NCBI GenBank assembly: GCA_051117555.1
Contig: JBNPEG010000134.1
Span: forward strand, 1 to 23,945
Source of the DNA: Elainellaceae cyanobacterium
GTDB taxonomy: Bacteria; Cyanobacteriota; Cyanobacteriia; CAZCXK01
Length of the DNA stretch: 23,945 nt
Direction of reading: 5' to 3'
Shown here: positions 19,149-23,945 of the stretch, one piece after another
Numbering within the stretch: the stretch's first letter is position 1
How the letters are laid out: the number at the start of each line of letters is the position of its first letter
Notes under the pieces: generated by a model
Told to the model about the DNA's origin: nothing
The model's database searches: none
Seen by the model: only the letters and a program-made list of their open reading frames with translations
Position numbers and translations under genes: made by a program

Positions 19149-21818
19149 ATGCAACCAACTGACCCTAGCAAGTTTACTGACAAAGCTTGGGAGGCTATTG
19201 TCAGCTCCCAAGATGTGGCTCGTCGCTTCAGACATCAGCAGCTAGAGGTCGAGCATTTGGCGATCGCTCTATTAGAGCAAGAGGGGCTTGCCAACACCAT
19301 TTTAGACAAGGCAGGTGTTTCCCAATCTCGACTCAAGCAACAGCTAGAAACGTTTGCTCAACGTCAGCCCAAAGTTTCAGACAGCGATCAGCTTTATCTG
19401 GGGCGGGGTCTAGATATCATGCTCGATCGGGCGGAAACGGCTCGGCAGTCGTGGCAAGACAGCTATATCTCAATCGAACATTTGCTCATAGCATTTGCAG
19501 ATGATGAGCGGGCAGGGCGTCGCATTTGCCGCGTTGTCGATTTGGATAAGGCTCAGCTTGAGCTTGCTATTAAGGCAGTTCGCGGGAGCCAAAAAGTGAC
19601 GGATCAAAGCCCTGAATCGCGCTATGACGCGTTAGACAAATATGGTCGCGATCTCACCGAGCAAGCCAGGGTTGGCAAGTTAGACCCCGTCATTGGGCGA
19701 GATGAAGAGATTCGTCGGGTGATTCAAGTGCTGTCGCGGCGCACCAAAAATAATCCGGTATTAATTGGTGAACCTGGAGTTGGCAAAACGGCGATCGCTG
19801 AAGGATTAGCTCAACGAATTATCAACGGCGATGTTCCCGAATCTTTGAAAAATCGTCGCCTTATTTCTCTCGATATGGGGTCTTTGATTGCGGGCGCAAA
19901 ATATCGGGGTGAATTTGAAGATCGCCTCCGGTCGGTCTTAAAAGAAGTGACCGAATCAGAGGGGCAAATTGTCCTATTCATCGACGAACTGCATACGGTC
20001 GTCGGGGCGGGGGCGGGTCAAGGCAATATGGATGCAAGTAACTTGCTCAAACCCATGCTTGCCCGTGGAGAGCTTCGCTGTATCGGGGCAACAACGTTAG
20101 ACGAATACCGAAAACATATCGAAAAAGATGCCGCGTTAGAACGTCGATTTCAACAAGTCTATGTGGGGCAGCCCAGCGTCGACGATACGATTTCGATTTT
20201 GCGCGGGCTCAAAGATCGCTATCAAACGCATCACAACGTCACCATCACAGACAGCGCGCTCGTAGCAGCCGCAACCCTATCTGATCGCTATATCAGTGAT
20301 CGCTTTTTGCCAGACAAAGCCATTGACCTGGTTGATGAGGCGGCTGCCAAGCTCAAGATGGAGAACACTTCAAAGCCAGAAGAGCTTGAAACCGTCGAAC
20401 GTCGCTTGATGCAGCTTGAAATGGAAAAGCGATCGCTCGAAGCTGAAGGATACAGCGCCGGTTTGACAACTACCTATCACTCATCGCAAGAAAATCTTGA
20501 GCGCATCGAAAAAGAAGTCGTGCAGCTCAGAACAGAGCGCGATCGCCTCAACTCGCAATGGGAATCTGAAAAGCAGATGCGAGATACGATCAAAGAGTTG
20601 CGGGAAGAAGAAGAAAAACTTCAGCGACTCATTGAAAAAGCCGAGCGAGACTATGACCTGAATACGGCTGCTCAGCTTAAGTATGGTCGCCTCGAAGCCG
20701 TTCATCGAGAATTGGAAGCCAAGGAAGCTAATTTGGTGGATGTGCAATCAAGGGGAGCAGCCCTGCTACGCCAGCAGGTGACTGAAGCCGACATTGCCGA
20801 AATCGTTGCTAAATGGACAGGCATCCCAGTCAATCGCTTGCTAGAGTCTGAACGACAAAAACTCTTGCAGCTAGAAAGCTATCTACATCAGCGCGTCATT
20901 GGTCAAGAAGAACCTGTCGAGGCGGTTGCAGCAGCGATTCGTCGTGCGCGAGCAGGTATGAAAGACCCCGGTCGCCCGATTGGCTCATTTTTGTTCATGG
21001 GGCCTACGGGGGTTGGCAAAACCGAGCTTGCCCGAACCCTTGCCGAATGCCTGTTTGACACCGACGAAGCCCTCGTGCGAATCGACATGTCTGAATACAT
21101 GGAGAAGCATTCGGTTTCGCGGCTCGTGGGTGCTCCCCCCGGCTATGTTGGCTATGAAGAGGGCGGGCAGCTCTCTGAAACGATTCGTCGTCGTCCCTAT
21201 TCAGTGCTTCTATTAGATGAAGTTGAAAAGGCACATCCCGACGTCTTTAACATTCTGCTGCAAGTTCTTGATGATGGACGGGTGACTGATTCTCAAGGAC
21301 GCGTGGTCGATTTTCGCAACACCATCGTGGTGATGACCAGCAACATCGGCAGCGATCATATTTTAGATGTGTCAGGCGATGATTCTAAGTATGAAGAGAT
21401 GCGATCGCGCGTACTCAATGCCTTGCGATCGCACTTCCGCCCAGAATTTCTCAACCGAGTCGATGACATTATCCTGTTCCACCCGCTCAGCCTCAACGAA
21501 CTCCGTCAGATTGTCGGCATTCAGCTCCAGCGCATTCATCGCCTGCTGAGTGAGCAGAAGCTGTTTATGGAGGTTACTCAGCCTGCCAAGAATCGCATCG
21601 CCGAAGTCGGGTATGACCCCGTCTATGGCGCACGTCCGCTCAAGCGAGCCATTCAGCGCGAACTAGAAAACCCGCTCGCAACGAAAATTTTAGAAAACGC
21701 GTTTGCTGAAGGCGACACAATTCTAGTTGATGTCCAGGACGGGAAGATGTCATTTAAAAAGAAGCAGCCGCTCGTTAACTCGGAGCCTGTTACCGTGTCG
21801 TTAGGAACAGACGCTTAA
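19149..21818 (+). CDS. clpB: ATP-dependent chaperone ClpB (probably the cyanobacterial ClpB2-type paralog)
   Basis: Two AAA+ modules ([16 protein letters not shown]), coiled-coil middle domain, and cyanobacterial [11 protein letters not shown]-terminus. Confidence 0.96.
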
Positions 21819-21943
21819 TGAGTGTTGAATGACGTCGGGCGATTGACACCATTGACACCGACACCCCAAAAGACGGCATCACTGTCTAGTGCATTGGGCG
21901 AGGAAATCTCGCCCCTACGGAATTTCGGACATCGCACTATGTC

Positions 21944-22297
21944 TCATACGACGCTCTCTTTGCGGGCAGGGCGCTTGCGCTCACTCTTACGGGTGCCGCC
22001 TGCCATTTCATATTCATTGCTGTCTTTGCCATATCGGGTCGCAACGCCAAGCAACATGCGCTCAGAGAGTGTATTCACCTGGATTTCGAGGGTTTTGACG
22101 AGGTTGGCAGCACGATCAGCCGAGGAAAGAATCGTGTTGTAAGCATTGATTTGATTGCGGAGGTCTTCGATTTGCTGTTTGTATGTCCCGAGAGTGAGTC
22201 CTTCACCGAGATTAAGCTGCTCGTCGATTGACTGGAGGCTGGCATAGCGTTGTTCAGCCCGCTCTAGAGTCCGGGAACTGCGTTTTGTTCGTGGCAT
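21944..22297 (-). CDS. Hypothetical 117-aa alpha-helical protein with basic termini
   Basis: ATG with AGGAG SD (22307-22311), coiled-coil-like core and C-terminal YGKDSNEYEMAGGTRKSERKR motif. I recall this motif from a cyanobacterial family of unknown function (not verified). Confidence 0.8.
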   Translation of the reverse strand: MPRTKRSSRTLERAEQRYASLQSIDEQLNLGEGLTLGTYKQQIEDLRNQINAYNTILSSADRAANLVKTLEIQVNTLSERMLLGVATRYGKDSNEYEMAGGTRKSERKRPARKESVV

Positions 22298-22517: not shown

Positions 22518-22706
22518 CGTGTTTCAAAAACAACTTATCGTGAATCAAATTCAACCCAAGCGTTACTTATAAATCACGGACATGAATCAAAAACAGCTTA
22601 TACTGAATCGAGTTTGACCCAAGCATTACTTATCAATCACGCACTTGAATTAAGTAACGCGCTAGCTGAATCGAATTTGACTGAAGCGTTATCGATTCAA
22701 ACTGTG
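22518..22706 (+). repeat. Degenerate tandem array: 3 x 63 nt built from 9 x 21-nt subunits
   Basis: Units start at 22518, 22581 and 22644; units 1 and 2 share 50/63 nt; TGAAT recurs at 22541, 22583, 22604, 22646 and 22667. Confidence 0.85.
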
Positions 22707-22720
22707 TAATCGAGAAATGG

Positions 22721-22764
22721 GCGATCGCCCCTCCCGCTGAGATTCTCAGGGAACGGGCGATCGC
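22721..22764. terminator. HIP1-capped hairpin, possible bidirectional terminator
   Basis: GCGATCGCCC (22721-30) pairs with GGGCGATCGC (22755-64), with an inner CTGAGA-t-TCTCAG stem. Lies between the converging repeat frame and the 78-aa gene. Confidence 0.5.
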
Positions 22765-22794
22765 ACCTTTAACATTCGGCGTCACCGCCTTGGA

Positions 22795-23031
22795 TTAATC
22801 GCTTAAGCCCATGATGCGTTTTGTGAGAATTTGCATCACCTCGTTGGGATTCACGGTGGGAATGGGTTTTGACCATTCATAGGGCTGAGCGTAGCCGAGT
22901 TGATACATTTGCATGATGTGATGGTTTACTGCTTTGAGCGAACCGACGGCAATCACGCGCAGTACTTCTCGGTCGTCGTTGTTGCATGAGGATGGGTCAA
23001 ACCGCTCAGGCGGTTCGTTGGGATTTACCAT
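22795..23031 (-). CDS. Hypothetical 78-aa protein (candidate regulated effector/toxin)
   Basis: ATG preceded by AGGAG with 9-nt spacing. Motif GS...V...I..(M/L)...GYA...EWS.P.P...EVM.IL, recalled as an uncharacterised cyanobacterial family (not verified). Elaborate structured leader. Confidence 0.75.
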   Translation of the reverse strand: MVNPNEPPERFDPSSCNNDDREVLRVIAVGSLKAVNHHIMQMYQLGYAQPYEWSKPIPTVNPNEVMQILTKRIMGLSD

Positions 23032-23114
23032 GATGAAACACTCCTGTGTTTGAGAGGTATAGGAGCGCTCAAACGAGAAGCCACCCCGCTATAAGGCATC
23101 GCGAATTGGGATGG

Positions 23115-23141
23115 CTACAGGAGTGTGGTAAAACAATCCAT
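23115..23141 (-). CDS. Putative 8-aa leader peptide (MDCFTTLL*)
   Basis: GGAGG-ct-ATG GAT TGT TTT ACC ACA CTC CTG TAG; its last codons contain the anti-SD of the downstream 78-aa gene. Confidence 0.45.
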   Translation of the reverse strand: MDCFTTLL

Positions 23142-23213
23142 AGCCTCCGATTCTGCTTCTTCAGAGTTCGGGGGTTAGTCTCCCGGCACGTGTTGTGACC
23201 ACTGCTGGGGGAC
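23140..23213 (+). ncRNA. Predicted ~75-nt cis-antisense RNA (SymR-like architecture)
   Basis: Promoter-like TTGGGA-N17-TAAAAC with TGn (23106-23134). Two adjacent hairpins (23141-23177, 23178-23213) contain five G.U pairs that form only on the + strand. Confidence 0.6.
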
Positions 23214-23242
23214 GCTGCTCATGTTTGAGCGCTTGATAGCCG

Positions 23243-23271
23243 AGAATACCGCACGTTGCTAGTAAAAACAA
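23243..23271 (-). promoter_or_regulatory. Putative promoter of the leader + 78-aa gene transcript
   Basis: Minus strand TTGTTT-N17-TATTCT, placing +1 near 23236, just before the long-range stem arm 23223-23233. Confidence 0.55.
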
Positions 23272-23304
23272 CCGTATTAATGAATTTCTCTGTGGGGGGG
23301 CAAC

Positions 23305-23557
23305 CTAAATTTCGGGATGCCGTAACGGTTTGCGGGAATGGGCATGAATCCAGACACATAGGGGCGTAGGGCGTAGGGGCGTACGGGCGTAGGGGCAGGT
23401 TTTGACAGTATCGTCCTGCTGTGCAATTAACGTATTGCCTAAACCTGCCCCTACGCGACCCGTCCGTACGAATCCCGATCGTACAAACCCATCATCCAAC
23501 ATCAAAATCCTGCGAACATGATTTGGAAATACCACGGCATTTGGGGGGGTAATGATT
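23305..23557 (-). pseudogene. Internal remnant of a REP-associated tyrosine transposase (RAYT/TnpA-REP, Y1 HUH)
   Basis: Minus strand encodes NHYP, then after a frameshift AVVFPNHVRRILMLDD (cf. FVVMPNHxHGI), then a REP-doublet insert (VGAGL...TCPY) and frameshifted NRYGIP/EI. Both ends are missing. Confidence 0.65.
23387..23456. repeat. GTAG-type REP doublet (REPIN-like)
   Basis: 16-bp perfect IR GCGTAGGGGCAGGTTT / AAACCTGCCCCTACGC with a 38-nt spacer, preceded by stuttered GGGCGTA copies from 23362. Confidence 0.8.
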
Positions 23558-23639: not shown

Positions 23640-23785
23640 AACGGGGTTCATCATGGGCAAGCTAGCAGGACTGAAGATTAAGAAGAAATCTCAGAAGACC
23701 AGCTCTGGACAAATGAATCTGTGGGAGCAGTGCGATCGCAGGTATGGAAAAGCAGAACGTGAAAAATCACCCGTTGTCCTCACGA

Positions 23786-23823
23786 GCTTGCTTGATTTGG
23801 GCGATCGCCCAAATCAAGCAAGC
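23786..23823. repeat. 38-bp perfect palindrome centred on HIP1
   Basis: GCTTGCTTGATTTGGGCGA|TCGCCCAAATCAAGCAAGC with no spacer. Confidence 0.95.
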
Positions 23824-23945
23824 ATATTCAGTCGTATACAAAGGCGTACGTCGAGCGCTAGTACGTTGATTTCCTTACAGTATCTTTTATTTGATTGAGC
23901 AAGATGTAGTCATTGTCCTGGCATGTTTCCACGCAAAGCGCAATC

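Follow-up and report, generated by a model that had tools for sequence, protein, structure and literature searches.

The 23,945-nucleotide (nt) stretch analysed here (the window) is one whole contig of an Elainellaceae cyanobacterium assembly (JBNPEG010000134.1; contig C203 of the source genome, labelled G000) and contains a self-contained, multicopy cassette of approximately 580 base pairs (bp) with a gene for a 78-amino-acid (aa) protein. Our favoured explanation, to which we assign a probability of roughly 0.6, is that a single DNA stretch within this cassette gives rise to one structured RNA from each strand: the mRNA leader of the 78-aa gene and an antisense RNA that represses it. Comparison among copies of the cassette shows RNA structure maintained on both strands, a conserved antisense -10 element, apical loops that differ from copy to copy, and purifying selection on the open reading frame (ORF). 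A sequence-only reading of the window had proposed a cis-antisense RNA of two hairpins; this predicted RNA is the best-supported reading, now on family-wide evidence. The module is of the antisense-controlled small-gene type, with a layout closest to those of aapA/IsoA and CopA/CopT, and is a member of no described family.

The leader helices differ in the kind of non-Watson-Crick pair that they accumulate. Every stacked position was counted in 68 copies from approximately 16 genomes aligned to the RNA model; as these copies are related, the cell counts are not independent events. On the mRNA strand, G·U cells outnumber A·C cells in helices P1 (49 versus 30), P1b (24 versus 5), P4 (49 versus 11) and P5 (38 versus 16), whereas the bias is reversed in P2 (1 versus 116) and P3a (2 versus 71), which together contain 187 A·C and 3 G·U cells. 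Since A·C on one strand corresponds to G·U on the other, P2 and P3a are maintained as plus-strand helices and the other helices as helices of the mRNA strand. An earlier count of 44 G·U versus 15 A·C cells on the mRNA strand was biased, because the mismatched P2 and P3 positions had been left out of its pair list. Furthermore, pair 62/92 in P3 covaries from C-G to U-A, and in an energy test that uses the alignment for segment limits only, all 68 copies have the more stable P2-P3 fold on the antisense strand (mean -35.9 versus -24.6 kcal/mol). The suggestion of the sequence-only reading that the structure was selected on the antisense strand is supported by the per-helix counts and by this test.

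At the window copy, the plus strand of 23140-23213 folds into two adjacent hairpins (-41.2 kcal/mol, z = -6.16, 0 of 200 shuffles as good), with -27.2 kcal/mol (z = -3.24) for the minus strand. This agrees with the approximately 75-nt plus-strand RNA described before, including its five G·U pairs, which were counted by hand. The predicted antisense RNAs of 16 diverse copies all consist of two adjacent, nearly perfect hairpins, and a U-run is located 7-10 nt after the second hairpin (P2') in many relatives. Taken across the family, the strand-mosaic covariation is unusually clear evidence that, at a single locus, selection acts on the RNA structure of both strands.

The same patterns bear on a reading that dispenses with an antisense RNA altogether and regards the element as a cis-acting structured leader (a riboswitch or protein-binding element), with the A·C positions of P2 and P3 as conserved non-canonical pairs of the mRNA. 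Such a leader would account for the closure by P1, the multi-helix junction, the sequence complementary to the Shine-Dalgarno (SD) sequence (anti-SD) and the presence of several gene families downstream, all of which are riboswitch-like, and the conserved P4 loop, read here as holding a promoter, could then serve in a tertiary contact or in binding. However, the A·C positions alternate with Watson-Crick pairs and almost never with G·U pairs, which is the pattern of a helix on the other strand, and the other helices within 50 nt are biased oppositely. In addition, the apical loops are hypervariable and copy-specific, whereas a ligand or protein site would be conserved, and no Rfam match was obtained, which makes this reading improbable. 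A riboswitch-like leader with an unconserved antisense RNA was our own initial reading and was overturned by the per-helix counts, the energy test and the census of -10 elements given below.

In the antisense-RNA explanation, the apical loops would identify the partner RNA. The 12 closest copies differ from one another mainly in two places, the apical loops of P2 and P3, with 4.29 and 3.67 minor alleles per column, respectively; most other segments stay at or below 0.3, and the P4 loop is at 0.18. The pair of P2 and P3 loops is unique in 17 of 17 source-genome copies and in all 22 copies examined in a related genome, G050. From this distribution, the hypervariable apical loops look like copy-specific address codes.

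The covariance model of the leader (R1) scores 185.8 bits at the window copy. Its closing helix P1 ties the mRNA 5' end to the stretch just upstream of the SD and encloses P2, P3, P4 and P5. The base beside CUCC in the anti-SD agrees with the base beside GGAG of the SD in 15 of 15 source-genome copies in the alignment, as either A with U or G with C. The sequence-only reading had proposed conservation and covariation of the leader as a check on its proposal, and both were found: in a hand-drawn structure of 48 pairs scored on 15 copies, 91.3% of cells are paired, versus 34-42% with slid partners, and changes on both sides occur at 15 pairs, a result matched by 0 of 500 shuffles. These comparisons show that the leader is a conserved structured element and that its structure is real. 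A cmscan search of Rfam 15 on both strands (E ≤ 10) returned four unrelated weak rows, none of which overlaps 23061-23235, and no family, SymR included, matched on either strand, so that the likeness to SymR noted in the sequence-only reading finds no support; the Sok models, like SymR, gave no match on either strand at this threshold. The 8-codon upstream open reading frame (uORF) with the product MDCFTTLL (23141-23115), to which a leader-peptide role had been assigned, is present in the window copy, and this role finds no support in the family: the uORF occurs in 12 of the 68 copies, and in 40 of the 68 the segment contains no ATG at all.

The RNA model has 17 matches in the source genome, 16 directly upstream of a copy of the gene and one at a contig end; two leftover gene fragments lack the RNA element. 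Among 61 related genomes, 16 have matches to the model; two of these genomes have 23 and 32 matches, the latter being the highest number per genome. In an even sample of the phylum, 7 of 151 genomes have matches. A simpler pattern scan gave hits in genomes titled Oculatella, Phormidium tenue and Leptolyngbya, among others, which are candidate carriers of the element. At 47 loci from other genomes, the ORF following the RNA module belongs to the 78-aa family (21 loci), to a family of approximately 115-212 aa with a helix-turn-helix (HTH)-like motif (15), to an HTH_36-like family (4) or to another ORF (1), and is ambiguous in the remaining 6. None of the ORFs following the module in other genomes has a Pfam match above cut-offs. 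The RNA module is thus portable, preceding at least two further ORF families unrelated to the 78-aa family.

The minus-strand promoter of the sequence-only reading (TTGTTT-N17-TATTCT) was located, as were the 205-nt leader from position ~23236 and the 78-aa ORF. Its hexamers are conserved and its spacer is variable among paralogs, and TTGTNN-N16-18-TANNNT is present in 32 of the 67 copies having upstream sequence, with more distant copies differing upstream. On the plus strand, the promoter that had been proposed (TTGGGA-N17-TAAAAC with TGn) is likewise present, with the -35-like TTGGGA at 23106-23111, and its -10 half stood up to comparison. In 63 of 68 copies, the first antisense hairpin (P3') is preceded at 6-10 nt by a -10-like hexamer (at least 4/6 matches, with A2 and T6 required), which reads TAAAAT in 37 copies and has TGn before it in 35; in most distant copies, the P4 loop reads GAUUUUAAC on the mRNA, which is TAAAAT on the opposite strand. 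By this census, the putative antisense -10 is conserved across the family. Both promoters are weak consensus matches and, in the single window copy, no better than chance: a generic promoter scan lists neither, with 1 site in the region versus 2.1 expected from shuffles. What supports them is therefore their conservation among relatives.

The making of both RNAs, their pairing, the repression of the ORF and its route are inferred. The mRNA would start at ~23236 and, with the 5' end of its leader locked in P1, would form P4 and P5, with P4 holding the anti-SD. The antisense RNA (approximately 75-95 nt) would start at ~23140 from an extended -10 within the P4 loop, fold into P3' and P2', and find its own mRNA via the two apical loops, which are different in every copy. 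Pairing might then spread to a duplex of approximately 75 bp in the leader, resulting in less 78-aa protein. As a duplex over 23140-23213 would reach the P4 5' strand, P4 could be broken and the freed anti-SD could close the SD; RNase III cleavage of the duplex is an alternative route to lower output. Predicted SD accessibility is weakly consistent with the former route.

Several observations weigh against this explanation. From its position 110-185 nt upstream of the start codon, the predicted duplex would leave the SD uncovered, and blocking the region in silico lowers mean SD accessibility modestly, from 0.26 to 0.15, with no change in approximately 8 of 20 copies. The alignment of the 68 related copies was fitted to our own model, P4-P5 has no strand preference in folding energy (sense more stable in 32 of 68), and a clear antisense terminator is absent from the window copy. 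In the window copy, the -10 TAAAAC does not end in the usual T and the alternative AACAAT has 4/6 matches, and the antisense -35 of the sequence-only reading is not conserved in the copy alignment. The protein family is found in 24 of 61 related genomes and the RNA in only 16, and on two plasmid loci with distant relatives of the protein the RNA model gave chance-level rows only. The 78-aa protein, modelled as soluble, exceeds typical type I toxins in length. Finally, both RNAs and their start sites are predictions from sequence comparison.

Table 1. Positions of the cassette and its parts in the window.
Feature	Position	Strand	Basis and remarks
Whole repeated cassette (promoter, leader, ORF, terminator hairpin)	22718..23296	-	Similarity edges between copies; ~580 bp
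Sense promoter, putative	23243..23271	-	-35 TTGTTT (23266-23271), N17, -10 TATTCT (23243-23248); predicted start ~23236; conservation
mRNA 5' leader, 205 nt	23032..23236	-	Predicted start near 23236; conserved structured element at 23061-23235 (~170 nt); covariance model
P1 5' strand (AGCGCUCAAAC)	23223..23233	-	Pairs with 23064-23074
P1 3' strand (GUUUGAGCGCU)	23064..23074	-	Pairs with 23223-23233
Leader helix P4	23115..23143	-	3' strand and loop hold anti-SD ACUCCUG (23118-23124)
Leader helix P5 (GCCAUCCC ... GGGGUGGC)	23081..23114	-	G·U excess on mRNA strand
8-codon uORF	23115..23141	-	Not a family feature; 12/68 copies, all of the closest clade
Predicted antisense RNA, ~75 nt (75-95)	23140..23213	+	Fold and family comparison; 3' end possibly towards 23235
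Predicted antisense hairpin P3', complement of leader P3	23144..23174	+	A·C bias, covariation; apical loop hypervariable
Predicted antisense hairpin P2', complement of leader P2	23178..23213	+	A·C bias, fold; apical loop hypervariable
Putative antisense extended -10	23126..23137	+	TGG (23126-23128) and TAAAAC (23129-23134), or overlapping AACAAT; in P4 loop
Shine-Dalgarno AGGAG	23042..23046	-	10 nt upstream of ATG; sequence and copy alignment
78-aa ORF, unnamed cyanobacterial small-protein family	22795..23031	-	ATG at 23029-23031
Long hairpin past stop codon, probable terminator	22720..22765	-	Two flanking GCGATCGC sites; cassette downstream end; alignment of cassette ends

The source genome contains 18 tblastn matches to the 78-aa protein, three of which are identical in protein sequence, and a sister genome contains up to 27 copies. 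With a median ratio of nonsynonymous to synonymous substitution rates (dN/dS) of 0.14 among 13 full-length paralogs, the 78-aa ORF is a real, functional gene under purifying selection. All 23 close clusters of the protein are unnamed or labelled 'hypothetical', and 349 representative clusters in a large library are related to it at E ≤ 0.001. In agreement with the sequence-only reading, the protein lies outside described families: searches of Pfam and NCBIfam gave nothing above cut-offs and searches of PADLOC and PHROGs gave nothing, and there is no Pfam hit to SymE or Hok at E ≤ 1. Likewise, none of 116 family members reaches a Pfam gathering cut-off, with two single weak hits (E ~0.006-0.008). 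Structure prediction with AlphaFold was poor with the 23 close sequences (predicted local distance difference test score, pLDDT, 54) and reached a pLDDT of 84.5 with 116 sequences, giving a beta-alpha-beta-beta core (residues 21-74). Foldseek found nothing at E ≤ 0.001 in the PDB for this core, and a wide VIA-align structure search returned no significant neighbour (best Z 3.9). In the model, the core loosely resembles small ferredoxin- or ACT-like domains, with no fold assigned. None of the papers listed by the literature searches was on the leader RNA or on the 78-aa protein family.

Type I toxins are small, usually hydrophobic or membrane-active proteins, typically shorter than 60 aa, which kill cells or arrest their growth unless an RNA complementary to the toxin mRNA, encoded opposite to it or in trans, keeps the mRNA from being translated or causes its decay. 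The module resembles type I systems in that, on comparative evidence, an RNA complementary to the mRNA would be encoded on the opposite strand. The protein departs from them: it is 78 aa long, lacks any hydrophobic stretch and is modelled as a soluble domain. By analogy with type I toxin-antitoxin pairs, a toxin or growth-arrest role is possible. A broader proposal, which we put forward tentatively and consider doubtful as it stands, is a superfamily of portable antisense 'lock' cassettes, widespread in cyanobacteria. In each, mRNA helices (P1, P4 and P5) and antisense hairpins (P2' and P3') would be interleaved on the two strands of one DNA segment, with the antisense promoter placed inside a hairpin loop of the mRNA. 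Copy-specific kissing loops would prevent cross-talk among up to 32 paralogs per genome, and the proteins under guard, small, soluble and of at least three unrelated kinds, would do harm if left unrepressed.

Instead of being a toxin, the protein might stem from a plasmid or mobile element and act as a regulator or bind DNA or RNA. The module would still be antisense-controlled, but akin in kind to CopA/CopT-RepA or to the copy control by asRNA1/ssr7036 of plasmid pSYSA and not to a toxin-antitoxin pair. The presence of the same RNA module before other ORF families (47 loci), the modelled solubility of the protein and weak hits to HTH_36, KorB and a phage replication initiator are in line with such a role, although the HTH hits remain under curated cut-offs. 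Distant relatives of the 78-aa protein are encoded on 13 cyanobacterial plasmids, and on plasmid D of Trichormus variabilis a distant family member has parG on one side and, on the other, a replication-related gene and a primase gene, a neighbourhood that would suit a regulator; however, the RNA was not detected on the plasmids examined. Furthermore, 17 to 32 dispersed chromosomal copies per genome would be unexpected for a replication controller, and the 78-aa protein is unrelated to Ssr7036. We consider this reading rather unlikely. Homology to Ssr7036 (64 aa) was rejected at an hhalign probability of 0.1%.

A blastn search of the region against its own genome showed that copies of the repeat are alike over 22717-23296, from approximately 25 nt upstream of the sense -35 to the long hairpin past the stop codon. 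This hairpin is absent from the listing of a terminator scan; from its place in the alignment, it is a probable terminator. In two related genomes (G002 and G003), the similarity between copies that are 92-95% identical ends at the same borders, with unrelated flanks. The sharp ends and unrelated flanks point to duplicative movement, whatever its route. They also fit a reading in which the hairpins of the plus strand would work as single-stranded DNA and not as RNA, perhaps as a signal for recombination or replication through which the cassette spreads, since unrelated flanks are found even between 92%-identical copies and DNA hairpins also tolerate G·T pairs. On the other hand, the hairpins are internal and away from the cassette ends, a conserved extended -10 lies at a fixed distance upstream of them, and no recurrent transposase or integrase gene is found near the 18 source-genome copies, which leaves a role as single-stranded DNA very improbable. 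Integron attC sites and similar single-stranded DNA recombination sites are single long, imperfect hairpins at the borders of cassettes that stand in arrays near an integrase gene. The cassette differs from them in its internal hairpins and its solitary copies, which are dispersed across the source genome, and no neighbour gene of any kind recurs among the 18.

Among antisense-controlled modules, the favoured explanation, repression by an antisense RNA, has one of its closest counterparts in aapA1/IsoA1 of Helicobacter pylori. According to excerpts of the report on that system, loop-loop contacts of two complementary stem-loops explain why repression is limited to the cognate pair (PMC5416894). 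Shared with aapA1/IsoA1, as the excerpts describe it, are a cis-encoded antisense RNA opposite the 5' untranslated region (UTR), two complementary stem-loops and several copies per genome, and its kissing-loop paralog specificity, approximately 76-bp duplex and translation-limiting mRNA fold would have counterparts here (PMC5416894). The aapA1/IsoA1 duplex, in contrast, covers the ribosome binding site, whereas the duplex predicted here spans 23140-23213 with the SD at 23042-23046, and AapA1 is given in the same excerpts as a 30-aa toxic peptide, in contrast to a 78-aa domain modelled as soluble (PMC5416894). As judged from the family comparison, the likeness to aapA/IsoA in two stem-loops with loop-specific recognition holds for structure and loop variability; aapA1/IsoA1 has no sequence or Rfam relation to the window RNA.

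In plasmid R1, CopA blocks the leader peptide tap, which is coupled to repA, and loop sequences set specificity. The module, as predicted, shares with CopA/CopT a two-stem-loop antisense RNA, a leader target some distance ahead of the ORF under control, and specificity set by the loops. Unlike CopA/CopT, it has the uORF in only a minority of copies (12/68) and is a chromosomal multicopy cassette, not a replication control. In symE/symR and hok/sok, a divergent cis-antisense RNA also lies over the 5' part of a small-gene mRNA. SymR covers the symE start codon, and SymE, like the 78-aa protein as modelled, is a non-membrane protein; translation of hok depends on the overlapping mok frame, to which nothing conserved corresponds in this family, given the distribution of the uORF (12/68).

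Among cyanobacteria, ssr7036/asRNA1 of the Synechocystis plasmid pSYSA likewise opposes a structured cis-antisense RNA, abundant in pSYSA according to excerpts of its description, to a small-protein mRNA (PMC9978351). In those excerpts, asRNA1 is approximately 150 nt long with three stem-loops, overlaps the coding part and controls plasmid copy number, and it differs from the RNA predicted here in these respects (PMC9978351). The candidate type I pair msoT1/msoA1 of Microcystis aeruginosa also has a two-hairpin cis-antisense RNA in the excerpted account; it differs in protein and layout, as MsoT1 is a 63-aa basic membrane-helix protein and MsoA1 pairs with the 3' end and the 3' UTR (PMC12390103).

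Small genes guarded by antisense RNAs are well known in proteobacteria and firmicutes, and such control is almost undescribed in cyanobacteria. The cassette brings in a whole family, with 17 RNA copies in the source genome and up to 32 elsewhere, in 16 of 61 related genomes, and neither its RNAs nor its proteins match families of Rfam, Pfam, NCBIfam, PADLOC or PHROGs. Its copy-specific loops bear on how many paralogous antisense pairs avoid cross-talk. Should the superfamily of lock cassettes prove true, cyanobacteria would have their first large superfamily of type I toxin-antitoxin-like modules, with effectors that are not membrane proteins. Growth inhibition by the proteins, if real, would widen the range of type I effectors. 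A possible use is as orthogonal RNA switches for cyanobacterial engineering. As stated in an excerpt of a 2025 paper, the single candidate which it describes had no predecessor among type I systems in cyanobacteria (PMC12390103).

Further repeats are found in and around the cassette copies. In two source-genome copies (G000:C95 and G000:C219; loci L039 and L040), an insertion of approximately 100 nt that carries AAGGCA repeats separates the RNA element from the start of the ORF, which indicates that RNA element and ORF are separable. In genome G050, at loci L057, L070 and L077-L096, the RNA element is followed by a conserved GC-rich hairpin (GGTAAGGGCGAGG..CCTCGCCCCTACC), 40-200 nt ahead of the start codon of the downstream ORF, which could be an attenuator or another repeat. 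A small palindromic element (GATCCCCGGC ... GCCGGGGATC) abuts the upstream cassette end in G000:C240, G003 (L048) and G002 (L001 and L026). In the window, an inverted repeat at 23359-23470 is made up of an 8-nt tandem repeat (TAGGGGCG, ~4.9 copies) together with the stretch next to it; its part 23387-23470 recurs on contigs C187, C152, C256 and C28 at 87-91% identity. The whole resembles a small palindromic element that is dispersed in the genome and sits upstream of some cassette copies. Small repeats of differing kinds thus seem to gather at the upstream cassette border. Just downstream of the cassette, at 22524-22681, lies a tandem repeat with a 63-nt unit (~2.5 copies, 79-82% match).

The window also contains a clpB-like ORF (19149-21818), just downstream of which a 42-nt sequence (21890-21931) is found that approximately 12 other contigs carry at 90-100% identity. 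A 117-aa ORF at 21944-22297 on the minus strand, with weak, sub-threshold Pfam rows only, has a paralog near the cassette copy on contig C208, at another distance and in another orientation. Upstream of the cassette, a remnant of a ParE/RelE-type toxin gene (23744-23945, plus strand) runs off the contig end and is interrupted by an in-frame TGA (23867-23869); read with X at the stop, it matches Pfam ParE_toxin with E = 0.001 and 20 bits, below the 23-bit cut-off. Within this remnant, a perfect 38-nt palindrome centred on GCGATCGC is located at 23786-23823.

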